Assembly: GCA_951406725.2 (NCBI GenBank)
Contig: OX597828.1
Coordinates: 29,264,001-29,328,000 of the forward strand
Direction: 5' to 3'
DNA length: 64,000 nt
Source of the DNA: Octopus vulgaris
Lineage: Eukaryota
Part shown: one piece after another, positions 5,112-43,708 of the stretch
How positions within the stretch are numbered: position 1 is the stretch's first letter
How the letters are laid out: each line of letters opens with the position of its first letter
Notes under the pieces: generated by a model
Database searches by the model: none
Told to the model about the DNA's origin: nothing
What the model saw: only the letters and a program-made list of their open reading frames with translations
Translations under genes and position numbers: made by a program

Positions 5112-5218
5112 ATGTTTAAAATATGTTTAAAATTTCTTTTTGTTTTGATTTTGAAATTTAATCCACAGACTCAATATATGTTCTTTCTGCTTTTTCTTTT
5201 TCCGTGTTCTTGGAACAG

Positions 5219-6505
5219 AGTGAGAAGGGAAGTAAATCCGGCTCTGATAAGGCTTCTACGACTGCAACCACATCATCTAATGCTGGGTTTACTGGTAGCA
5301 GTACAGTAGCAGGAGCGGAAGGAGGAGGAGGGGCAACAGCAGCAGGTGCAGCCACTGCAGCAGCAGCAGCAGCAACAACATCTACCCCGGCCTGGATGAT
5401 GCCACCCAACATGAACTACCCTTCACCCTTAAACATGGGCAGCATGCCAGGGATGTTTCCTCAGTCATCTCCTTTCTTTGCTCCGATGACCGGGCAGTTT
5501 CCTTACCATTTCAGATTTCCATATCCTCCCACCAGTATGGACCCAAATGTCAATTCCATGCCAAACTGTCGAATGATGCCCCCGTTTCCAAATCCATTTT
5601 TACCCCCAATGTTTCCCGCTAATTATGCCTTCCCCCAGCCTGGTGTCACCGACAACTCAAACGCTTCCGCTGCGAATGCTATGCCATTTTCTTTCCCTTT
5701 CATGCCCGGTTTTCCAACTATGCCCGCTGCCGTGTCTGCGACAAGTGCAAGTGTCACGACCTCTGCTCCTGTTTCAAGCCCTGCTACTGTAACATCCAGC
5801 TCTACCAGTTCAACAGCAGCTTCCCAGTCGAAACAGCTGGCTTCATCTTCTGCATCCAAACCAGCTTCTACTAATCCGTCCACCACAACCACTACTACTA
5901 CAACCACTACTGCTACTACTAATAAATCATTACTCAATGCCACTGGAGGCGTATCCCAGGACAGTACAGATTCTGCTAGCACCCAAGCTCTTTCAGTTCC
6001 AGACCCGTCGACGTCATCACAGCGAGTCTCAGATAATGCGTCAGACAACACATCGCCAAATGTAGAGACCATCACAGCTGGCAGGAATGATGTGGATGTT
6101 GTAGCCTGTCCTTCACCTTCCTCTTCTTCTCCCCATGCTTCTGCCACACAAAGCACGACTTCACCTGGAACTACACTTCGGCATCGTACGACGACTGCTG
6201 TTACGACGCCTTCGTCGTCATCAGAAACATCACTGTCATCAACGACAACAACAACAACAGCAACAACAACACCAGCAAACACGTCTAATACAAACACATC
6301 TGCCACTACAACAACATCATCAGCTCCACAGATGGAGACTGCAGACGTAGCTTCACCGCCAAACGCTACTACGCAGAGACCGTCTTCAAGGGGTACGGCC
6401 AGCTTTGTCCTGATGGTCATGCTAGGAGCAATGATCCTTTTGCTGTGTTTGCGCCGTCTTTATGTCAGTGTAGACCATTTACCATATTCAGATTATATGC
6501 AGTAG
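5219..6505 (+). CDS. UBE2J1: UBE2J1 terminal coding exon: long low-complexity linker plus C-terminal tail-anchor TM helix
   Basis: Polypyrimidine tract and cag acceptor at 5216-5218, phase 0, 428 open codons. Ends in ASFVLMVMLGAMILLLCLRRLY..., matching the UBE2J1 TM plus RRIY motif. Stop TAG at 6503-6505. Confidence 0.8.
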   Translation, partial: SEKGSKSGSDKASTTATTSSNAGFTGSSTVAGAEGGGGATAAGAATAAAAAATTSTPAWMMPPNMNYPSPLNMGSMPGMFPQSSPFFAPMTGQFPYHFRFPYPPTSMDPNVNSMPNCRMMPPFPNPFLPPMFPANYAFPQPGVTDNSNASAANAMPFSFPFMPGFPTMPAAVSATSASVTTSAPVSSPATVTSSSTSSTAASQSKQLASSSASKPASTNPSTTTTTTTTTTATTNKSLLNATGGVSQDSTDSASTQALSVPDPSTSSQRVSDNASDNTSPNVETITAGRNDVDVVACPSPSSSSPHASATQSTTSPGTTLRHRTTTAVTTPSSSSETSLSSTTTTTTATTTPANTSNTNTSATTTTSSAPQMETADVASPPNATTQRPSSRGTASFVLMVMLGAMILLLCLRRLYVSVDHLPYSDYMQ

Positions 6506-14734: not shown

Positions 14735-15718
14735 CATATTTTGATGGTCAAATCAGATAAACCAAGATGTCGTCATTTTTTTTTTTTCTCAAGCGACGCT
14801 ATAGTTTAGATGGAGAAAATATGCAGCAATGGATAACGAAGGACCCTCTGCACCAGGGATTCTTAACCATTTTTTTTTTATCTACGGACTCCTTTGATTA
14901 CTATTTTAATCTTGTGGATCCCCATAGCCATTCGATGTTTAAAAACTAGTTTTATAGAAACTGCTTTCAAAATTCCTATTTTGCTTTTCCCTCCATTCAC
15001 TTGTGGAGGTTGAACGAAGTAAAATGTTAGAGAAGGAAACCGGATCTTTTCGGTTTGAACGGCAGTTTTTAGCATAATTTCTAGGTAACTAAAAAAATGT
15101 TAAACTTCGTTTACTGGTAGAATGTGTTTATAAAACATCTTTTTCTCTTGGCTTTATTGAGAAAATTCTATAGTTTGTAAGATATTTGTTGTTTTTTTTC
15201 TTCAATTTCTGCAATTTCAACCAATCAATGACGTCTATTGCGGTGAAAACATTCTGTGCCGTATGACTATGTCCCTCGGTTAAGAAACAGATTGGGTTTA
15301 TTTACATTTCTGAAGAAAAAAAGATACCCTTCCCCCCACCGCTAACCGGATCTTTTCTTTTTGAAAGCCAGATTTTCCTAGTTAACTAAACAATTTGAAA
15401 CTTCGTATACTGGTAGAATGTGTCAAAAGAAAACATAATTGTAAACCAAAATGAAAACGGAATTGTAATTTCTAAGTTTAACGTTGTTTAATAATTCGAA
15501 TTTTAACCAATGGTATTCTTTCTTTCGACCTCATATTATTTACTGCCTCTCAAAATATTGTTACTGTGACGTAAACAGCTATTTTGTGACGTAGTTAACG
15601 TAAACATGTAAATAGCTAACTAAAATGTAAACATCTCCGCTTATCATAAACTTCGTGGAGTATATATAAAATTTGTGTAGATCCTAAATAGCTACACACA
15701 CACATGTATACAAACATA

Positions 15719-15785
<67 letters not shown>

Positions 15786-16745
15786 CTATACACACATATT
15801 CTAATGCATATGCATATATGTGTATATATTTATAGATGCATACATTATATATATATATAAAAGATGTTTACATACAATATATATATGTTATATACATCTA
15901 CATGTATATGTATGTATGAATATATAAGTACCACAGAATTTGGATCAAACTGTTTTGATCCATACATACACACACACACCAACACTACCATCCATGAGAC
16001 ATCCTAACATAATCAATGCTACTACTACTATCATCATCATTATCATCATCATCCACTGCCGCCACCACCACCACCTCTACAAAAACACCAACACTATAAT
16101 TGCTGCCATCATACACATCCACTGTCACCACCACCACCACTGCCATGATAACCACATCTACCACAGCTGTTTGCTTACTGCTTACCCACTCACAAAATAG
16201 CTATCTACGTCACATTAACACTATGCAGCTAATAATTTCAAATGGAAACAGAAAATATGATTGGTTAAGGATAGAATAAGTACTGGGCTTACAAAAAGAA
16301 TAAGTCCCGGGGTCGAGTTGCTCGATTAAAGGCGAGGCTCCAGCATGGCCGCGGTCAAGAGTAACATTAAAAGTAAAATATGTTTTATACGACACATTAG
16401 GGTTAGGGTTAGTGTCCGAAGGTTGAAAGTGTTTAGTTACAAAAAATATATTTCTCGATCTGCCGTTGAAAGGGTAAAGATCCCTTATATTATTTATTTA
16501 AACCCTTTACAAACTAGAAGGGTTATGGGTCAAGAGGAAAATACATCAATCAAATGTTGGGAAGGCCATCGGTTGAATAAAACAACATTGTTCCTCAACA
16601 GAACAATAAGGCTCTATAGTTAGGGGGAAATTTACCCATTCAGTTTCAAAACTCAGGTGGAGCCAAAAGAGGTCTCTACACATACATACGTATACACACA
16701 CACACATACATACATATATCCAGACAACTTCAGCTTATATATATA

Positions 16746-16802
<57 letters not shown>

Positions 16803-17605
16803 GCTTGGATCGCTTTCAATGCCACTACATCCCGTCCGATTCGCTCCAAAATTTACAGGGACATGTAGAATGTAGGTAGCCCACGATGCTCGTGGGCTAC
16901 CTTAGAAATCCCTATCTTAAAAGGTGTGGTTGTTAGGGGCCATCTTCCTCACTCACGCTATTTCCTCCAGTACCCTCTCACTCCCCTTCATGTATAACTT
17001 TGATAAGTCCACTACCGTTATTTAAAGTATCTGTCACTCTCGCTATTTCCTCTCTTTTTCACTCACTCTGTTTCTTACCTTCCCATTACATCGGCGTTCT
17101 TTTACGTATCTGTCTGTCACCAACAACACACGAGCATGAGAACAAATATTATGAATCAGATATTCTTGCGTTCATTTATATGTATGTGTGTGTATGTGTG
17201 TTCTATATATAAATATGTATATATAATGTATATATACAAAGTGTATATATCTGTATTTATGTATATTAAACTTTTTCATAGTTATATATATTTTTAAACA
17301 AATTATAAATATAATTTAATAATTTTTATTTTCAATATTATATTTTTTTTAATGTTTTTGTTTTTTCACTGTTTGATTTGCCTAAAAATTCCATTTTTTC
17401 ACTTTTATGATTATACCCAGAGTGCTCTAATCGAATATGAACTGTCTTCCCATTGGCGGACGTTTGTCTTTTTTATTTTTGAAACAAACACATTGGCTCT
17501 TTTGTTTTAAAACAATACTACCTTAATACTCCAACAAACAAAACATCACCCACTCTCATTCTTTTATGTATCTGAGAATGTGTGCCTGTCTGTCTGTGTG
17601 TTTCC

Positions 17606-20068
17606 CTAAAACCTGAGAACTACACGGTTCGGTTCGGTTCGGTTCGGTTCGGTTCGGTTCGGTTCGGTTCGGTTCGGTTCGGTTCGGTTCGGTTCGGTTC
17701 GGTTCGGTTCGGTTCGGTTCGGTTCGGTTCGGTTCGGTTCGGTTCGGTTCGGTTCGGTTCGGTTCGGTTCGGTTCGGTTCGGTTCGGTTCGGTTCGGTTC
17801 GGTTCGGTTCGGTTCGGTTCGGTTCGGTTCGGTTCGGTTCGGTTCGGTTCGGTTCGGTTCGGTTCGGTTCGGTTCGGTTCGGTTCGGTTCGGTTCGGTTC
17901 GGTTCGGTTCGGTTCGGTTCGGTTCGGTTCGGTTCGGTTCGGTTCGGTTCGGTTCGGTTCGGTTCGGTTCGGTTCGGTTCGGTTCGGTTCGGTTCGGTTC
18001 GGTTCGGTTCGGTTCGGTTCGGTTCGGTTCGGTTCGGTTCGGTTCGGTTCGGTTCGGTTCGGTTCGGTTCGGTTCGGTTCGGTTCGGTTCGGTTCGGTTC
18101 GGTTCGGCTCAGGTTCGGTTCGGTTCGGTTCGGTTCGTTCGGTTCGGTTCGGTTCGGTTCGGTTCGGTTCGGTTCGGTTCGGTTCGGTTCGGTTCGGTTC
18201 GGTTCGGTTCGGTTCGGTTCGGTTCGGTTCGGTTCGGTTCGGTTCGGTTCGGTTCGGTTCGGTTCGGTTCGGTTCGGTTCGGTTCGGTTCGGTTCGGTTC
18301 GGTTCGGTTCGGTTCGGTTCGGTTCGGTTCGGTTCGGTTCGGTTCGGTTCGGTTCGGTTCGGTTTCGGTTCGGTTCGGTTCGGTTCGGTTCGGTTCGGTT
18401 CGGTTCGGTTCGGTTCGGTTCGGTTCGGTTCGGTTCGGTTCGGTTCGGTTCGGTTCGGTTCGGTTCGGTTCGGTTCGGTTCGGTTCGGTTCGGTTCTGCG
18501 TTAAGCAGAGTGATGGGCCTGAAATTATCTATTACATCCCCCTTGCTCTGGTCCTTCCTGATTAGCGTCACCACTCCCCGGCGCACAGATCTGGGGATAA
18601 ACCCATTCTGCTGCCAGTTTGCGTAGACGCCCGTCAGTAAGTCCCCGAACAAGTCCGGCATACTTTTATAAAGCTCGTAGGGTAGACCATCCAGTCCCGG
18701 CGCCTTACCCGCACCGCAGTCTGCCATGACCTCTATTACCTCCTCAGGTGTGATCGGCTCCTCACTACACTTCACATCCTGCCCCGAGAGGCGCGGCAGC
18801 CCGTCGAGGAGGTCCGTAAGGTCCCTCCCCCTATCCGGTCCGCCGCTCCCCCCGAAAAGCTGGGCGAAGTGGTCCTGAAAAGCTTGACACATCTCCTCGG
18901 GCTCGTCTGTCAACTTACCCTGTTGGTTCGCCAGAGATCGAATTGTAGCATCGTTGCCACGTTGGGCTTCCACCACTCGGGCCCATCCTGCAGCCTTGAT
19001 TCCTTCGCTCCCCATCGTACGTTGTCTAGCCCTGACAATGCAACCCATGTGTTTGGCTTCGAGGTGCTGGTTAAGAACCAGTCTCTTGACCTTCACCTGG
19101 TCTGCATTGCCAGTTCGCATTGCTTCCTCTAAGTCCTTAACTAGTGTAGTTACCTTTCTAGCCACTCTAGCTACAAGATTAGTACTATATCTAACGGACT
19201 CATATTTTATGGCTCGCTTAAGGGCATACCACCATTTGTTGTTACAAATGGAGCCGGTCATGGCCCTCTGGATTATTAACCTAATCCTGTCCCTGTACTC
19301 CTTAATCGCCAAAAGGGACGTATTAAGTTTCCAGTAACCAGGACCTCTAGTTATCTTATCTACGTGTAGCCTACAGGTGACCATCTTGTGGTCACTGTAG
19401 CTGATTATATGGAGTTGTGGACTCTTAACTAGGTTCTTATCTACCTTCCTAATTAATATCCTGTCTATGTATGGCTTTAACGATCCGTCGCTATTTGACC
19501 ACGTCCACAGTGGAGCGCCCGGATGTTCCAGTCTATATGGATCTACCAGCTCAAAACGTCTTAGTAGATCCAGGAAGCAAGCATTTCCTTTTCTGTCTGT
19601 TCGCGAGCCTTCACAGTCTACCCGCACATCGCAGATTGTGTTGAGGTCCCCTAACATTACTACTGGGCACGATGTACTCAGAAACTTCTCCAGGTTCCGA
19701 TAATAATCACTTTTCCCCTTACCGGGGGGAGCGTAAACCGCAACCAGCCTGATTGTCTTACGGCTACTGAACGTCAACTCAATGACGACCAGCCTACCTT
19801 CCGGATCTGTAAAAATCAACTTTTTCTCAGAAACCCAGTTCTTTTTACACAGGACCAACACCCCGCTTCCGCCGCACGACGGGTCCGGAGAGATGACACT
19901 CTCGTAACCGTTGAACAGCGGGAGCAGATCTCTTGGCCCCTTTAACCGGGTTTCTGTGGCAACGACAACATCTAAATCCCGTGACCTGATGTTATTTAGG
20001 AAGCGCCCTTGCTTCCAGCCCGTCATCAGGCCACGCACATTCAAACACCCTACACAAATATGAGACAT
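17606..20068 (-). CDS. Tx1/L1-clade LINE ORF2: APE endonuclease and start of RT, truncated at 18497 and read through the (GAACC)n array as (PNRTE)n
   Basis: APE motifs LNVRGL, ATET, VYAP, GDLN, YIDRI, SDHK. GPGYWKLNTSLL. RT-proximal KAPGLDGLPYELY and NFRPITLLNAE. The YADD core is absent. Confidence 0.88.
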   Translation of the reverse strand: MSHICVGCLNVRGLMTGWKQGRFLNNIRSRDLDVVVATETRLKGPRDLLPLFNGYESVISPDPSCGGSGVLVLCKKNWVSEKKLIFTDPEGRLVVIELTFSSRKTIRLVAVYAPPGKGKSDYYRNLEKFLSTSCPVVMLGDLNTICDVRVDCEGSRTDRKGNACFLDLLRRFELVDPYRLEHPGAPLWTWSNSDGSLKPYIDRILIRKVDKNLVKSPQLHIISYSDHKMVTCRLHVDKITRGPGYWKLNTSLLAIKEYRDRIRLIIQRAMTGSICNNKWWYALKRAIKYESVRYSTNLVARVARKVTTLVKDLEEAMRTGNADQVKVKRLVLNQHLEAKHMGCIVRARQRTMGSEGIKAAGWARVVEAQRGNDATIRSLANQQGKLTDEPEEMCQAFQDHFAQLFGGSGGPDRGRDLTDLLDGLPRLSGQDVKCSEEPITPEEVIEVMADCGAGKAPGLDGLPYELYKSMPDLFGDLLTGVYANWQQNGFIPRSVRRGVVTLIRKDQSKGDVIDNFRPITLLNAEPNRTEPNRTEPNRTEPNRTEPNRTEPNRTEPNRTEPNRTEPNRNRTEPNRTEPNRTEPNRTEPNRTEPNRTEPNRTEPNRTEPNRTEPNRTEPNRTEPNRTEPNRTEPNRTEPNRTEPNEPNRTEPNLSRTEPNRTEPNRTEPNRTEPNRTEPNRTEPNRTEPNRTEPNRTEPNRTEPNRTEPNRTEPNRTEPNRTEPNRTEPNRTEPNRTEPNRTEPNRTEPNRTEPNRTEPNRTEPNRTEPNRTEPNRTEPNRTEPNRTEPNRTEPNRTEPNRTEPNRTEPNRTEPNRVVLRF
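17625..18496. repeat. (GGTTC)n / (GAACC)n pentanucleotide array, ~174 units
   Basis: Read directly. Only three variant sites (about 18108-18111, 18137, 18365). Confidence 0.95.
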
Positions 20069-20080
20069 TTACTTACCTTT

Positions 20081-21137
20081 TTATGTCAGTGTCCCTGTTG
20101 GTCGGGGGGTGAAGTCCGCATTAATCAGTGGCTCGTCCACTTCGAGTTGCGGACCCTTTATGTCCCCTGCGAACTGTGCATTTAACATATTAAAATTTCG
20201 TAAGTCCAATTTATAAATTGCTACATTTTTTTGTAGATTTCTGTGGGTTTTCACCCTTACTGCGCTTGGGATATTTCCCATTCCACTTTTAAGTCTGTCA
20301 TTATTTTTGTTTATTGCCGCATATACTATTTGGGCTTCTGTAAATCTGTTTTTTTGTGGGCTTTGTGGGGGTGATATGGAGGAGGTCGGGGAGTATGATA
20401 TGGGGGAAACTGGGGAGGAGTTTGGGAGGGGAGGGAGTTGCTCGGGACTGGGGAGTGGGGTTAGCTTGTGTTGGGCTGGGGGGGTCTTCTCTTTTTTCTC
20501 TTTTTGTCGGGGTGGGGTAGATTTCTCCCCCTGTATGTTGGATTTCTTTTTGTGTGTGTCTGGGTTGGGTGGGTTAGTATCAATGTTTTTCCTCTTTGGG
20601 TTTTTCCTTGGCCTCACCGTTGTGAAGGCATTTTCGTCCTCCTTTGTCTTTTCTTCCTCCCTCTTCTTCTCCTCTTCTTCTGTCCTTTTTTCTTCTTCCA
20701 CTTTTTTCCGGGTAGGGCACTCCATACGAATGTGTCCCTTTTCCCCACATTCGTAGCATCTAGGCTTTCGCCCTTCCACTACCACCCGTAAGTTGATTTC
20801 TTCGTCGAACTGGATGTTTTCTGGGATTTCTTCCATCGTTTCTGGGGTTGCCTGTGCTATTATATGCAGAGTTTGTCCTCTCCAATGTTCTCTTTTAATC
20901 TTCGTGATATTCACCACCCTTATCTTCTTCTCCAGCCCCATCATTAATGCTGGGAGCAACCACTTCACCTCGATTTGTGGTGGAATATCTTCGACCCTTA
21001 TTTTGGCAGTTCGCCTCCCCAAATACGAGGGTAATAGAATTACCTCGCTTGTTTTAATTGGGTTCAGTGAATGTTTCTTTGCCATTTCTTCATCTCTAAA
21101 GTGTACCTCGATCGTGGCGTACTTTTTCCCCCAATTA
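20081..21137 (-). CDS. Tx1-clade LINE ORF1 (gag-like, zinc knuckle), 5' truncated
   Basis: Open frame with CCHC knuckle CYECGEKGHIRMEC, then K/E-rich and P/S-rich tracts, ending 12 nt upstream of the ORF2 ATG. The ORF-track start at 21181 lies in AT-rich flank. Confidence 0.82.
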
Positions 21138-21675
21138 ACATAATTAACATAATTAATGTTTAAATAAGAAATGAAAATCATTTAAGTTAATCATGCAATT
21201 TTGGGAATATTCCATTTTTTACTGATATATACTACAATAACAAAGAAATTATTTAAGATTTTAGATTTATGCATAAGTATTCTTATGGTTCCAAAACACA
21301 TGGTTCTCAGTTCAGCCCCACTGTGTGGTAACTTGGCATGTGTCTTCTACTATAGCCTGACACCAACCAAAGCCTTGTCAGTGGATTTTGTAGACAGAAA
21401 CTGAAAGAAATCAATCGTATATATATCTATGTATGTAAGTCTGTGTGTGTGTGTCTTTGTGTTTCTCCCTCATCACTGCTTCACAACTGGTGTTCGTTTA
21501 TTTACATCCCCATAACATACTGGTTTCACAAGAAGAAACTGATAGAATAAGTACCAGGCTTATCAAAATTAAAAAAAAGCTCTACGCAGTGTCTCGCATA
21601 TATATGGATTTCGTGGACAGGAACTGAAACAAATCAATCGTATATATATGTATGTATATATGTAAGTGTATGTGT

Positions 21676-24378
21676 TTTAGTATTGGCAACATGAATGACA
21701 ATGGCCAGAGACTACTTGAATTTTGCACATACCATAACCTGTGCATCACCAACACAATCTTTCCCAACAAGATATCCCACAAGGCATCTTGGAGACATCC
21801 AAGATCTCACCACTGGCATCAGTTGGATCTCATCATTACACGAAGATCCTTTCTGAATTCTGTTCAACTGACCCGTAGCGCGGATTGTGACACAGATCAT
21901 TCACTAATAAGAAGGGTGAGGATTCTGCCTAAAAAGTCCATCACTCCAAGAAAATGAGCCAACCACGCATTAACACTGCCAGAACCTCGGACCCTACACT
22001 GTGACAATGTTTTGCTGTTTCTATCAAGGTTGCCTCAGTAGCTGCCCAACCTCCTCTGCTGAAAGTAGGTGGAATTATATCAGGGAGGCTTTGTATATCA
22101 CATCAATAGATACTTTCGGAATGAGAGAAAGGTAAAACTCAGATTTTGTTCAGTGCTGGGCTCTCAGAGCTGGAAACAGTTATCGAAGCAAAGCGTGCAG
22201 CTCTGATGCAATACAAGAGTGTTTCTTCTACAAAGTCACTCGAAGAACTCAGAAAGGCAAGAAATAAAACCCAACTCACTGCCAGACGCTGTGCAAATGG
22301 GTATTGACAGGAAATCTGTCAGAGTATCCAGTCAGCTGCTGACAGTGGTGACACCCGTGGGATGTATGCCGGTTTGAAGAAGGCCCTCGGTCCATCCGCA
22401 ACCACCTCAGCCCCTCTGAAATCAACTACTGGAGATCTCATCAAGGACCAAAGCAAGCAAAAGGATACATGGATGGAGTACTACCAGGATCCCTACACAC
22501 GAGAGTTAGCTGAGGCTGCAATCGAGGGTGTCAAGATCTTGCCAGTCATGTGTGAACTTGACAGTCTGCCATCTATAGCAGAGCTCACCAAATCTATTGA
22601 CTCCCTAGCAAGTAACAAGGCTCCGGGGAAAGACGGCATCCCCTTAGAGATCATCAAAACCGGCAAAAATACCATCCTGCTTCAGCACATTCATGAGCTT
22701 CTGTGTCAGTGCTGGTAAGAGGGTACAGTCCCTCAGAATATGCGGGATGCTAACATCATTACGCTTTACAAAAATAAAAGTGACCGTGATGATTGTAACA
22801 ATTACCGTGGAATATCTCTTCTAAGCACAGTTGGAAAGGCCTCTGCTCGCATTATCCTGTCCAGGCTGCAACTAATTGCTTCTCGAATTTATCCAGAATC
22901 GCAGTGTGGCTTTAGAAGCAGATCAACTATTGACATGATATTCTCCATACGCCAACTTCAGAAGTCCAGAGAGCAGAACATGCCATTATATATGGCCTTC
23001 ATTGATCTGACAAAGGGCTTTGACTTGGTAAGTAGAAAAGGCCTCTTCATCCTGCTCCAAAAAATCGGATGTCCACCAAAGCTGCTGAGGATCATCAAAT
23101 CATTCCATGCTAATATGCAAGGCACCATACAGCACAATGGTTCAACATCAGCCGCCTTCCAAATAAAAAATGGGGTAGAGCAAGGTTGTGTCCTTGCTCC
23201 TACATTATTTGGCATCTTCTTCTCGCTGCTGCTGTCACATGCCTTTGAGACATCAGATGATGGAGTGTTTCTGCACAGTAGAAGTGATGGGAAACTGTTT
23301 AATCTCTCGCGTCTGCGTGCCAAGACCAAAATCTCAGAAGCGTCCTGATCAAGGAGATGCTATTTGCTGATGATGCCGCTCTGGTATCACACACAGAAGA
23401 AGCCCTACGAAGGCTCAGCAACTGTTTTGAGCAAGCATTTGGCAACTTTGGCTTAGTTATCAGCCTCAAGAATACCAACATCATGGGTCAGGCTACATCG
23501 GACATCCCAAACATACATATTGGAGACCACAGAGTATAGGAGGTGGAGAAGTTTACCTATCTTGGCTCTACCGTCACCTACAACCTATCCCTTGATGCTG
23601 AGCTCAATATACGCATTGGCAAGGCAGCTGCTGTGATGGCCCAACTCACCAAACGCGCATGGGACAACAATAAGCTGACCAAGACCACAAAAATGAAGAT
23701 TTACCAGGCATGTGTACTTAGCACTCTACTGTATGACTTTGACGCCATACACACGCCATACGACGCCATACGTCGCCTAAATATCTTTCACTTGCGCTGT
23801 CTCCGGAAAATCCATCGCATCAAATGGCAGAATCATGTCCCTAACAAAGATGTCCTCAAGCAAGCAGGAATACCAAGCATGTTTGCACTCTTCACACAAA
23901 GACGTATGAGATCGCTTGGACATGTTAGCCGTATGGAAGATGGCAGAATCCCCAAGGACATACTCAACGGAGAGCTTGCTAGGGGCACTAGGTCTGTGGG
24001 AAGACCGTTCTTACGATACAAGGATGTTTGCAAAAGGGACATGAATGCCTGCAACATCAATATTACCAACTGGGAATCAGTTGCCAGCAACCGTGGAGAT
24101 TGGCGATGTATCGTAAAAGAGGGAACACGAAGGAGTGACATAGTGAGAAAGGAGAAATGGAAAGACAAGAAAAGACGTCAACAAAAAACTATGACATTAA
24201 GACCAGTCAGGCAAAGTCTTCGCTACATTTACGGCACCTGCCAGAGGGAGTGTTTGTCCCGGATAGGACTACACAGCCACAGCAAGGGATGTATTAGGAC
24301 ATGAAATGTAAAAGCCGGACTAGATTATTTTATGCGCAACTCCATTGTCTCCTGAGACAAAAAGGATGCCAACAACAA
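21676..24378 (+). mobile_element. Degraded RTE (BovB-like) LINE, 5' truncated in the endonuclease domain
   Basis: Frameshifted fragments: NDNGQRLLEFC, HQLDLII, NYRGISLL, QCGFR, AFIDLTKGFD, QGCVLAP, LFADD, FTYLGS and a C-terminal CxxC..H zinc finger. (CAA)n tail and a ~75-bp flanking direct repeat. Confidence 0.9.
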
Positions 24379-24656
24379 TATATATGGATTTCGTAGACAG
24401 GAACTGTAACAAATAAATCGTATATATATGTATGTATATATGTAAATGTATGTGTGTGTCTTTGTCTCTGTGTTTCGCCCTCATCACTGCTTCACAACTG
24501 CTGTTCACTTATTTACATCCACATAACTTACTGGTTTCACAAGAACAAACTAATAGAGTAAGTACTAGGCTTATCAACATAAAAAAGCACTAGGCTGTGT
24601 CTCATATTTTTGTTTGCCCACTCAGTTGTATCTATCAATTTATCTTTGTGTGTGTG

Positions 24657-26088
<1,432 letters not shown>

Positions 26089-26449
26089 TTATATATAAAT
26101 ATAAATAAGTAAAAGATATGCAATAAATATAAATATGTATATAAAAGTAAAAATGTACATATATATATATATATATTCTTTCTTTTATTCTTTTACTTGT
26201 TTCGACCCGAACACTTCTTTAAAGTAATTCTATATATTTCGCAAGAAAGAACAATAATATTATGTATATACATGCCACCATCGGGGGGACAAACACAAAC
26301 ACACACACAGTTTCCGTCTACCAAATTCACTCACAAGGCTTTGGTTGGCCTGAGGCTCTAGTAGAAGACCAAGGCGTCACGCAATGGGGCTGAATCCAGA
26401 ACCATGTGGTTGGTAAGCAGGCTACTTACCACACAGCCACTCATGCATA

Positions 26450-27687: not shown

Positions 27688-27757
<70 letters not shown>

Positions 27758-27758
<1 letters not shown>

Positions 27759-28153
27759 TAGCAGTGTCGCCCACCGTTGCTCGGGTTTGTAAGGGAAATA
27801 ACTATATAATCATTTTTAGAGATGTAAAGTATAATAGCCTTCTCAATATGGCTAACTACAAAGGGGGTGGGGTGTTACTGTAGCTTTTTACATTCTGAGA
27901 TTTAATAATACATTTTAGAGAGTTACTTCCCTTATATAAACCGAGCGAAAATGCATTAAAAATGCGGAAAAAATTATGGTAATTTTTTTTTTAATCGTAA
28001 ACTCAGCGTAGACGTGCGCTAATACCCAGAAGGGCTCGATATGAATCACAACTATAAGATACCCGCTTTTGGTTACACTGCACCGCAAAATGAGGGAGTA
28101 GTTAGGAATCTAAATCGTAGGAGACAGACACACAACTTCACTTTTATATATAA

Positions 28154-28156
<3 letters not shown>
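27758..28156 (-). mobile_element. Non-autonomous Helitron family H1
   Basis: On the - strand it starts TC(TTTATATATAAAAG) and ends with the hairpin CCCGAGCAACG..GGGCG plus CTAG, inserted between A and T. Copies at 33455 and 43301. Confidence 0.8.
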
Positions 28157-28213
<57 letters not shown>

Positions 28214-32950: not shown

Positions 32951-33454
32951 ATTTATGATTGTTTCAAAAATTCCATGTTGACTTAATCTTGCATTGTGTT
33001 TTTAAACGACTCCACAATTAATGATGTAGTCATATCTGTTGTACAGATACCCCGTTCATAGAAATGATCCCTCGCAACTCTCTACAAAAAATAATATGCT
33101 GAAGTGTTTGTCTACCGCTTAAATATAGGACATTAATCAATGTTTATAGTGGACGGCACAGCGGTCACGTTTATAAACATGATTGAAGATAAGTCAAAAT
33201 GAATTTGTAGAAATAATTGTAAACTATGAAACAAAAATAATAACACAAACTCCACTTTTCAGTGCTTATTACTTCTGTAACCTCTCAGAGGAAACATGAC
33301 TCCTCCTTCACTCCTCTCCACCCTTCATTTATGGTTTGAGAATAATTCTATAATTGTTGTAAACTGGAATGGAACTTACTCTCTTTCTGCTCACATCCAT
33401 TCACCATTTAATGCTACTTGCTTTGCATCTTTCAGAGAGATAGATTAGATATAA

Positions 33455-33839
33455 CTAGCAGTATCGCCCGGCGTTGCTCGGGTTTGTAAGGGAAATAACT
33501 ATATAAGCATTTTTAGAGAGTTATAGCCAAAAAATGCATTAAAAATGGAAATAAATGATGGTAAATTTTTTTTAAATCGTTGACTCATCGTAGACATTTT
33601 TAGAGAGTTACTTCCCTTATATAATAGCAAAGAAATGCATTAAAATGGAAAAAAATGATGGTAATTTTTTTTTTAAATCGTAGACTCATCGTAGACGCGC
33701 GCTAATACCCAGAAGGGCTCGATATGAATCACGACTATAAGATAACCGGTTTTGGTTAAACTGCACCGCAAAATGTGGGAGTAGTTAGGAATCTAAATCG
33801 TAGGAGACAGACACACAACCTCTCTTTTATATATAAAGA
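33455..33839 (-). mobile_element. Non-autonomous Helitron family H1
   Basis: Same termini as the 27758 copy, with an internal tandem duplication. Confidence 0.8.
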
Positions 33840-35840
33840 TAAACTCAAAGAGCAACTAGAAAGTGAAAGTAGTATCTAACTTAGGATGTCTCATAGATAG
33901 TGGTGGCAATGGTGTTGGAGGTGGTACATGTGGTTATCATGGCAGTGGTGGTGGTGGTGGTGTAGTGGTGACAGTGGATGTGTATGATGGCAGCAATTAT
34001 AGTGTTGGTGTTTTTGTAGAGGTGGTGGTGGTGGCGGCGGCAGTGGATGATAATGATAATGATGATGATAGTAGTAGTAGCATTGATTATATTAGGATAT
34101 CTCATGGATGGTAGTGTTGAAGACATTGCAGAGTGTAGTGGTGGTGAAATTGGTGATTTTGAATATGATGCTGGTATTGATCTTGGGGTTGTGGTTGCAG
34201 AAGATGGTTGTGGTGGTGGCAGTGGAGGTTGTAGTAATGGTTGTAGTGGTGGTTGTGAAGATGATTCTGATATTGATAGTCTTTGCATTGAGGTGGTGGC
34301 AGAGTCAGAGTAAATAATAAGAGCCCAGTTAACACAAGATTCTTAAATTTCGGAGATCATAAGATAGAGAGCAAGAAGTTAAAAGTTCCAATACTGGCCC
34401 AATACCTACACCCCAGATTCTTCAACTATTTTATAAGAAAGGGGTTAATGGCAGGATAGGGATTCAGCTTTAAGATAAATTGTATAACAAAAAATACATA
34501 AATAAATTACTGCTCCAACGATGTAATTTTAGTATGTGTGTGTGTGTAAGCAATGCAAACAATGGAAAATAATTTAAACACTCATTTTCTGATGTCTAAG
34601 GATGGATATTTATGCGTATGAATCTTTTTCTTTTTATTTTCTTTCAAATATAATTCTAGGGAACTGAAAAAGCTGTATACGGTGCCAAGCGAATTTAGCT
34701 ATTTACGATGAGCGGATGTTTACGTTACAAACGAATCTCTAGGTCTGTTTACATGTTTACGTTAACTACGTCACAAAATAGCTGTTTACGTCACAGTAAC
34801 AATATTTTGAGAGGCAGTAAATAATATGAGGTCGAAAGAAAGAATACCATTGGTTAAAATTCGAATTATTAAACAACGTTAAACTTAGAAATTACAATTC
34901 CGTTTTCATTTTGGTTTACAATTATGTTTTCTTTTGACACATTCTACCAGTATACGAAGTTTCAAATTGTTTAGTTAACTAGGAAAATCTGGCCTTCAAA
35001 CTGAAAAGATTCCGCTAACCTAACCCTAACCCTAACTAATCCTAACTTTAACCCTAACCCTAAAACAGATTGAAATGCAATAGATCAATACTAGGGTCAT
35101 AATTATGGGTGACAATTTCATATGACACCGCTAGAAAAAACTGCCGTTCAAACCGAAAAGATCCCTATTTTGTTATATGGACACCTAAAAATCTTATATG
35201 GACTCTCAGGGGCCATGTGGACCCCAGTTGAAAACCACTGCTCTACACGGTCGCTTGAACGGTTAGAACTAGCAGCCTCATCTCCCTTAAATCACGTAAT
35301 CTCATCTTAAATAAAGATTTTCACTGGCGAGTGTAGATACCGAGAAACAACAACAACAACAAAAACCAAAAAAACAAACAAAAAAAAACAAAAAAGGAAA
35401 AAAGATGTAATGGTCACATATGGAACGCTTTGATCAAGTCATAAGTTTGTTCGATTAGGGCCGAACTGAGGTTAAGCATCATCATCGTCATCATCATCAT
35501 CATCATCACTATCATCATTATCGTCGTCGTCGTCGACATCATCATTATCATCGTCAACAACAACAACAACAACAGAAGCAACAACAATAACAACAACAAC
35601 ATCGTTTATAACTGAAATAATTCACAGATTTTTATGTTTTGTGTCTAAAGCTCGAGAAGCAACGCATACTTTTTTGTTTATGATTCAACCAGTGAGTTTC
35701 GCGATTCATCAACCTTCCAGGCACAACAGCCAAATCTTCCGCCAACCACACACGACTATGTGAAACAGAGGAAGGAAATATTCCTTCATACAGTTCTGGA
35801 GGCCCATAACCTGAAAAGGAAAAAGAAAAAAATAACAATA

Positions 35841-40039: not shown

Positions 40040-41035
40040 CTGGGTTGGCAACTAAGTTCCCGCCGTATTTTAAAATTTTGGAATTTATTGCGTTTTAAAA
40101 TTTTGGAATCTATTATTTTCGAGATTCTGTTTTTGAATCATTTTGGAATCTATTTTGTTTTTTTTTATTTCTAGGTAATTTTAGTTAATTTTTGTTTATT
40201 TTCAGATCATTAAAATGGAATGTCAAGTTAAGAAAAACGAGCATTTTCGACACCTCCTTCTTTTTGCTTTTAATCAAGGTTCTAAGGTCGCAAAAGCTGC
40301 TCGCGACATTTGTGCTGTGTACGGAGAGGGTGCCATCACTGAAAGAACCGCTCGTGATTGGTATGCCAACTTAAAAAATGGAAATTTTGACCTCAAAGAC
40401 GCACCTCGTTCTGGCAGTCCAGTTGAGTTCGATAAAGAGCGATTAAACTTTTGCACGAAAATTCTCGTCAAACGTCAAGGGAACTGGCAGAGAAAACGGA
40501 ATGCTTCCACACTGCTTTAGAGAAGCATCTTCACTCGATGGGAAAGATCCAGAAGTATGGATCGTGGCTTCCGCATGCTTTAAGTGACCCCCCACCTCAA
40601 AAAAAAATCAATGAGCCACAATCTCCGCTGGTTTGCTTGCTCGTCCCCGCTCAACTCATGGACACAAGCAATGATTTCTTTACCGAATCATTACTGGCGA
40701 CCGACGAAAAATGGTGCCTGTACATCAATATGAAGCAGCGTAAAGAATGGCTTAGCCCCGGTAAACAAGCGACACCGTGCGTGAAACAAGATCTTCATCC
40801 ACGTAAAATGATGTTGTGCGTATGGTGGGACTGAGGAAGGATTATCCATTACGAATTGCCTGAACGGAACCAAACGGTCAACGCGGAACTCTATGTTCAA
40901 CAGATGGAACGACTCAACACGGCTATTCAAGAGAAAAGACCTAATCATCAGCATGGAGTTCTGCTGCACGACAGCGCCCGCCCTCATATCGCCAATATGA
41001 CCAAAGAAGCCATTCAAACGCATGGCTGGGAAGAG
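40040..41035 (+). mobile_element. mariner transposon pseudogene, 3' truncated
   Basis: TA|CTGGGTTGGCAACTAAGTT TIR. Frameshifted transposase with HTH (FRHLLLFAF, WY..KNGNFDLKDAPRSG), WLPHAL, TDEKW, LCVWWD and LLHDSARPH. YSPDL and the right TIR are missing. Confidence 0.9.
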
Positions 41036-43106: not shown

Positions 43107-43300
43107 GCACAAAAACAACGGCAGACATATACGATGGGTTTCCCCACAGTTTCCACCCACCAAATCCACACACAAAACATTGGTCAACTCAGCGTTATAG
43201 CAGAAGACGCTTGCGCAAGATATCGCGCAAACCACGTGATTTTTAAAGCGCGCTTCTTAACTACCACCACAAACATATATATGTACGATTTATATATATA

Positions 43301-43697
43301 CTAGCAGTATCCCCCGGCGTTGCTCGGGTTTGTAAGGGAAATAACTATATAAGCATTTTTAGAGAGTTATAGCCAAAAAAATAGCAAAAAAATGCATTAA
43401 AAATGGAAAAAAATGATGGTAAATTTTTTTTTAAATCGTTGACTCATCGTGGACATTTTTAGAGAGTTACTTCCCTTATATAATAGCGAAAAATGCATTA
43501 AAATGGAAAAAAATGATGGTAAATTATTTTTAAAATCGTAGACTCATCGTAGACGCGCGCTAATACCCAGAAGGACTCGATATGAATCACGACTATAAGA
43601 TACCCGGTTTTGGTTAAACTGCACCGCAAAATGTGGGAGTAGTTAGGAATCTAAATCGTAGGAGACAGACACACAACTTCACTTTTATATATAAAGA
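43301..43697 (-). mobile_element. Non-autonomous Helitron family H1
   Basis: Same termini and body as the 33455 copy. Confidence 0.8.
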
Positions 43698-43708
43698 TAT
43701 ATATATAT

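Follow-up and report, generated by a model that had tools for sequence, protein, structure and literature searches.

A recent L1/Tx1-group LINE copy of Octopus vulgaris, cut at both ends and joined within ORF2 to an 872-bp (GAACC)n array

How did the reading frame of a retrotransposon come to break off within its reverse transcriptase (RT) region and to run directly into a long pentanucleotide repeat? The question is raised by a locus in a 64-kb stretch of the Octopus vulgaris genome (assembly GCA_951406725.2, contig OX597828.1, positions 29,264,001 to 29,328,000), which is called the window in the following and to which all coordinates refer. The locus consists of a long interspersed nuclear element (LINE) on the minus strand and a (GGTTC)n / (GAACC)n array. 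The original prediction had described it as an "ORF-intact" Tx1 LINE, the RT of which was replaced in frame by the repeat. The answer favoured here, with moderate confidence, is that it is a dead, recent, 5'-truncated copy, and that its 3' half was lost in a deletion or repair event sealed by short microhomology onto a slippage-grown (GGTTC)n microsatellite. The following features, including the open reading frames (ORFs), are needed for the argument:

17559-17624, plus strand: left flank of the array, presumably similar to the 5' end of a non-autonomous Helitron; the test against the family in the window was not significant
17625-18496, no strand: (GGTTC)n / (GAACC)n pentanucleotide array of 872 bp with interruptions at 18105-18115, 18136-18139 and 18365
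17606-18493, minus strand: read-through of ORF2 across the array, which yields (PNRTE)n and is a by-product of a stop-free pentamer
18494-20068, minus strand: 5' half of ORF2, 525 amino acids (aa) without stops, with an apurinic/apyrimidinic (AP) endonuclease, a linker and the start of the RT region; the last codon (18494-18496) is common to the array
20081-21140, minus strand: ORF1 remnant, stop-free and 5'-truncated, with a CCHC zinc knuckle and an RRM-like N-terminal part
21133-21150, no strand: 5' junction of the LINE, a 9-bp tandem duplication where LINE-like DNA switches to AT-rich DNA

The N-terminus of ORF2 is an AP endonuclease (Pfam Exo_endo_phos PF03372, E=1e-13), and all six conserved catalytic motifs are present. 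The 525 residues align to residues 6-538 of human L1 ORF2p (E=1.6e-28), and the frame ends with ...RPITLLNAE at the equivalent of residue ~538. The break-point comparison included 105 relatives, 12 of which, without the motif, were left out, so that 93 remained. The break is located 159-163 residues ahead of YADD, the RT catalytic motif of the relatives, which extend 569-900 aa beyond the break point (median 639, for the 58 of the 93 with more than 500 residues left). As had been predicted, ORF2 enters about 174 near-perfect GAACC units directly at this sequence (17625-18496, 174.2 copies). The 3' half of the LINE (~1.9 kb) is nowhere in the window: tblastn with four of four relatives, three near-full-length and one without endonuclease, matched only the 5' half and an unrelated RTE element. 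A complete RT, the C-terminal domain, the 3' untranslated region (UTR) and a tail, which are features of an autonomous element, are, thus, absent from the window.

The copy is also cut at its 5' end. The open frame of ORF1 spans 20081-21181 (minus strand) without stops and contains a zf-CCHC domain (Pfam, E=5e-4), and a feature search yielded matches to CCHC and ZCCHC3-type RNA-binding domain clusters (0.88-0.92). At about 21140, on the 5' side of the LINE, the GC content drops from 43% to 10%, and the sole upstream ATG of ORF1 is situated inside the AT-rich flank, indicating the 5' truncation. With low confidence, ORF1 seems to begin midway through an RNA-binding domain, based on the feature search and on a structure model with a predicted local distance difference test (pLDDT) value of 39, which was used as a hint only. 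The description "ORF-intact" therefore holds insofar as both ORFs are stop-free, but not with respect to intactness, because ORF1 is truncated. As the RT core and the 5' end are both missing, the copy is to all appearances dead and incapable of reverse transcription. No GAACC repeat was found at the 5' junction, and a search with Rfam for an snRNA, tRNA or rRNA target near the element gave only low-complexity matches below the gathering score.

The element is built like a LINE of the L1/Tx1 group, i.e., ORF2 has an N-terminal AP endonuclease followed by the RT region, and there is a separate ORF1 with a CCHC knuckle. As the RT core is missing, a tree was calculated on endonuclease plus linker (27 rows); the element groups with P0003 (99) and then with a further clade (100), and the single Tx1-named protein, P0104, dropped out, together with P0005 and P0053. 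"Tx1" thus denotes here an assignment to the L1/Tx1 group from endonuclease and linker, with no named Tx1 reference remaining in the tree. The closest retrieved ORF2 protein was P0003 with 56% identity, and the search of the protein collection gave no ORF2 relative above this value and no ORF1 match at all. Neither P0001 nor P0002 nor the exact fusion protein was in the collection of 15 billion proteins.

The absence of disabling mutations sets a limit to the age of the copy. In the 2631 coding bp 4.3% of the substitutions create stops, and the probability of finding no stop or frameshift over this length is 0.10 at 2% divergence for substitutions alone and 0.018 with modest indels. A copy free of disablements is unlikely beyond about 2-3% divergence, i.e., an age of a few million years at the rate of 0.0036 per million years that is quoted in a passage of PMC13282606. 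In the same passages 421 recent L1-Tx1 insertions from 13 families were counted in Octopus vulgaris, and, thus, stop-free L1-Tx1 ORFs are ordinary in this species.

Repeat detection in the window gave the array unit CGGTT/AACCG with 174.2 copies and 99% matches. The 171 perfect units are split over four runs of 96, 4, 45 and 26 units, and the three interruptions comprise three single-base indels and a single substitution. The array has an internal position, flanked by at least 17 kb of sequence on one side and at least 45 kb on the other. No further array of GGTTC dimers or trimers was present anywhere in the 64-kb window, which is free of N.

The left flank may correspond to the initial ~65 bp of a non-autonomous Helitron that breaks off where the array begins. 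A comparison with the Helitron-like family of the window itself gave no support: the global score against the Helitron 5' end was 4-8, it was matched or exceeded by dozens of unrelated loci, and the alignment was poor, so that this candidate is kept as a mere lead. At 17609-17620 (plus strand) the left flank also contains AACC-3nt-GAAC, in which the first two units of the repeat recur in inverted orientation with a gap. As a fold-back seed for the array this motif was rejected, because 4% of random 20-mers match as well and the observation was made post hoc; it is at most a weak hint of fold-back repair.

At the junction, the final ORF2 codon is common to the array. An Asp or a Glu is found at this position in 92 of the 93 relatives with the motif, and in none of the 93 is it followed by Pro. 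At this point the element does, thus, not code for the GAACC unit. Because the relatives have Asp or Glu at the junction codon, a microhomology of 2 bp (GA) is certain, and it extends to ~4 bp at most. The original prediction had noted microhomology with the repeat; at least 2 bp would match at 6% of random breaks if the phase is fixed, and at 32% with the best, freely chosen phase. A hairpin with a 5-bp stem in ORF2 (18497-18511, minus strand) ends at the array junction, a weak, post hoc hint of fold-back repair. The best candidate for a target-site duplication (TSD) was the 6-mer ACTACA, which was rejected as chance since it was matched at 22% of random positions; the earlier finding of no TSD was, thus, borne out, as nothing beyond chance was detected.

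Does the open frame across the array carry information? The ORF from 20068 to 17606 (minus strand) indeed encodes 820 aa, i.e., 525 aa of LINE ORF2 followed by (PNRTE)n until the stop at 17606. Contrary to the claim that the repeat is stop-free in any frame, five of the six frames are open and one minus frame is closed by an interruption at 18109-18111. With a unit of 5 bp the same peptide results whichever of the three frames is read, and of the 102 pentamer classes 94 lack stops on one strand and 62 on both. That the endonuclease-(PNRTE)n frame stays open is due solely to the lack of stop codons in the repeat, and, therefore, the "in frame" replacement of the RT is without information. The same applies to the emphasis on the 820-aa fusion and the antisense (VRFGS)n frame: the former is open as stated, but this is the chance expectation, and a 5' end that could drive the expression of ORF1 and ORF2 is missing.

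To what extent the motif occurs without a LINE was addressed with a control scan of bacterial and archaeal genomes for at least 25 perfect GGTTC units, which gave three loci. In L001, the DNA of which is animal-like, 71 GGTTC units form part of a compound microsatellite and are followed by other pure arrays; L002 has 27 units at a contig end; and in L003 an N6/N4 DNA methylase gene begins with 86 AACCG units (locus 1940-2377), a layout that we take to be that of a phase-variable methylase. The contig of L001 (L001:1-4250) is part of the record of a bacterial metagenome-assembled genome and, with its compound microsatellites and (TA)n, is probably a contamination by an animal host. In none of the three cases was a LINE sequence detected by tblastn within 2 kb of the array. 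The original prediction had held that GGTTC arrays which are common and unlinked to Tx1 would speak for a chance deletion, and unlinked arrays do exist, namely all three long ones, each from outside the O. vulgaris genome.

At the protein level, searches with the repeat peptides gave 7 and 150 listed matches, and 12 among these 157 had at least three exact units. In the Pfam data for these proteins (7 of the 12 scanned, precomputed domains for four more, P0208 unscanned) there was no LINE endonuclease. Likewise, none of the 138 retrieved LINE relatives, which are at most 56% identical and leave the family itself unsampled, had at least three PNRTE or VRFGS units. One protein, P0224, contains an RT fragment that is unrelated to the element and that we read as Penelope-like, and its frame runs into (RTAPH)n and then into (PNRTE)n. 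The grading of its repeat from a related unit suggests an expansion in place. As the control loci are without a LINE, the AACCG motif expands readily without Tx1, and, as P0224 illustrates, the read-through from an RT into such an array is not unique. Searches of the open-licence literature turned up neither a description of GGTTC/AACCG arrays from cephalopods nor one of a junction of this kind, and the passages seen of PMC12564688 and PMC9115989 contain nothing on the GGTTC motif.

Which series of events could have produced the junction? In the favoured account, a 5'-truncated LINE of the L1/Tx1 group would have inserted recently, and later, or during the repair of the insertion, at least ~1.9 kb of its 3' part would have been lost, comprising the RT palm and thumb, the C-terminal domain and the tail. 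Through the microhomology of 2-4 bp, the break would have been joined to a (GGTTC)n microsatellite; this may have pre-existed at the far end of the deleted stretch or may have been seeded at the junction, and the array could have reached 174 units by ordinary replication slippage. Most likely this was a one-off deletion or repair event and not a new kind of mobile element; the junction is unusual, but single. Among the three candidates of the original prediction, the deletion into a satellite or repeat-associated break repair is, thus, the best supported. Several points weigh against this account. The control arrays are all from other organisms. With 483 bp, the longest perfect run of the array exceeds the next longest in the microsatellite-rich window (95 bp) five-fold, and the array must have formed or been joined within the short life of the LINE copy. 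The repeat strands form no hairpin (minimum free energy 0), and hairpin-driven fragility was rejected as a structural cause of the break. The idea that the left flank, too, belongs to a truncated element gained no support from the comparison with the Helitron-like family of the window. Last, the microhomology does not separate DNA repair from template switching by an RT.

Template switching leads to an alternative, which we regard as rather improbable: during target-primed reverse transcription, a GAACC-bearing RNA end was copied ~174 times by RT slippage; with the help of 2-4 matching nt the RT then switched to a Tx1 RNA, at an internal site or on a broken molecule, and came to a halt in ORF1. 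A variant that is given equally little credence is a telomerase-like Tx1-type RT, which would have reiterated a 5-nt RNA template ~174 times from a nicked target and then jumped to an internal position of its own RNA. The GAACC source could be the tail of the family itself or a satellite transcript. The orientation fits, with the array at the start of first-strand synthesis and the 5' truncation at its end, and the variant also agrees with this truncation, with the young age of the copy and with how pure the array is. Partial precedents exist in simple sequence repeats (SSRs) made by slippage at the 3' ends of RTE LINEs (excerpts of PMC2887409) and in tailless, 3'-truncated retrocopies, template-switch chimeras and insertions without TSD (excerpts of PMC4494074). 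However, the SSRs described in these excerpts lie at a true 3' UTR between TSDs, the unit is not templated at the break, and none of the 138 relatives has such a repeat. Thus, from the telomerase-like synthesis at initiation that had been proposed, the strand orientation is retained, and the untemplated unit, the missing TSD and the lack of a second example speak against it.

An assembly artefact, in which unrelated loci were joined via (GGTTC)n by a collapsed longer array, a chimeric read or a gap fill, is unlikely, yet it has to be given some weight, and the Tx1 copy would then truly be longer. All three single-base indels of the 3.5 kb of element plus array are in the array and none is in the 2631 bp of ORF (P=0.015), a pattern that would fit poor polishing; a young copy cut in the middle of the RT fits as well, and no host gene was found that spans the array and could prove colinearity (Pfam on 271 of the 405 filtered ORFs revealed only a mariner transposase). 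Nevertheless, the window contains no N, 872 bp are, as is generally known, easily spanned by long reads, indels cluster also in real microsatellites, and the array would still adjoin one of the flanks. The family might instead target (GGTTC)n in the manner of Kibi and Koshi and have inserted into the array before it lost the 3' half. Many Tx1 families are target-specific, and (TC)n, (TTC)n, (TTCC)n and (TTTC)n are among the targets (passages of PMC4494074), but the repeat would be expected on both flanks and is missing at the 5' junction, and a second deletion would still be needed, so that this is improbable. Healing by a telomerase, or an interstitial telomeric sequence with a TTCGG motif, is very improbable, because the side from which the G-rich strand extends is that of the left flank rather than that of the Tx1 break. 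Furthermore, the telomeres of molluscs consist of TTAGGG, and the array is internal. It is long and pure, and earwigs do have telomeres with the motif TTCGG (passages of PMC11829193); the octopus telomere motif was not found in the passages of PMC5646656 or in the portions seen of the supplement of PMC10767889. Hardly credible is a selected endonuclease-(PNRTE)n fusion protein, i.e., a domesticated LINE fragment. The endonuclease motifs are intact and the 820-aa frame is open, but the latter is expected by chance, the three indels reveal no constraint on the frame, the element is without a 5' end, and the exact protein is not found among the 15 billion.

The window contains further mobile elements, and its short interspersed nuclear elements (SINEs) look like those of an octopus. 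At 21598-24455 (plus strand) there is a decayed RTE-type LINE with endonuclease and RT matches and a short (CAA)n tail. It is flanked by a 78-bp direct duplication of a SINE sequence (21598-21675 and 24378-24455, 95% identical), an unusually long TSD-like repeat. Three near-complete non-autonomous Helitron-like copies with a TC start and a CTAG end are located at 27756-28160, 33453-33841 and 43299-43700 (all minus strand), and a Helitron-like 3' end at 26061-26090 (plus strand) appears to be part of a separate element. A broken mariner transposase was found at 40185-41035 (plus strand; HTH_48 and Transposase_1 pieces). At 5162-6505 (plus strand) there is a Ser/Thr/Pro-rich frame of 447 codons without a Pfam match, which ends in a hydrophobic, transmembrane-like stretch plus a short tail and probably represents the final exon of a host gene. 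In addition, inverted copies lie ~18-19 kb apart in the same relative order, 15350-15615 versus 34745-35010 (98.5%) and 15980-16164 versus 33921-34119 (91%), which may represent a local inverted duplication or paired repeats; they do not extend as far as the array.

The different explanations have different consequences. If the deletion or repair account is true, the locus represents one dead copy at a site of repair and an example of a microsatellite-associated deletion, while a misjoin would flag (GGTTC)n arrays as assembly break points. If sister copies carry the same array, this would be evidence either that a LINE RT can synthesize repeats with high processivity in vivo, which would link the RTs of non-LTR (long terminal repeat) elements to telomerase, or that a new Tx1 family targets microsatellites. 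If the Tx1 RT is telomerase-like, LINE RTs would directly make kilobase-scale pure microsatellites in the O. vulgaris genome.

How does the locus compare with known systems? Like L1/Tx1-group LINEs, e.g., the L1-Tx1 families of Octopus vulgaris described in passages of PMC13282606, the element has two ORFs, a CCHC motif in ORF1 and an endonuclease with linker in ORF2, and it is young, stop-free and 5'-truncated. In contrast to them, it has no RT core, no C-terminal zf-RVT region, no 3' UTR, no tail and no TSD, and it terminates in the 872-bp pentamer array. With Kibi, Koshi and the crocodilian Tx1 it shares the position of a Tx1-like element next to a simple repeat; however, these insert complete 3' ends into pyrimidine repeats (PMC4494074, in part), whereas here an internal break adjoins the repeat and the other end is free of GGTTC. 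The SSRs generated by RTE LINEs also lie directly downstream of ORF2 sequence and in the orientation of first-strand synthesis, but they follow the C-terminus of the RT and the 3' UTR, their unit is present in the element, and they are placed between TSDs (PMC2887409, in part). At the octopus locus the junction is within ORF2, there is no TSD beyond chance, and the unit is encoded at this point in none of the 93 relatives. The slippage-expanded (AACCG)n arrays elsewhere (L001 and L003, P0224 and P0194) are shorter (15-86 units) and are not adjoined by a LINE endonuclease, but they resemble the octopus array in having the same motif, tens of pure units and a (PNRTE)n read-through.

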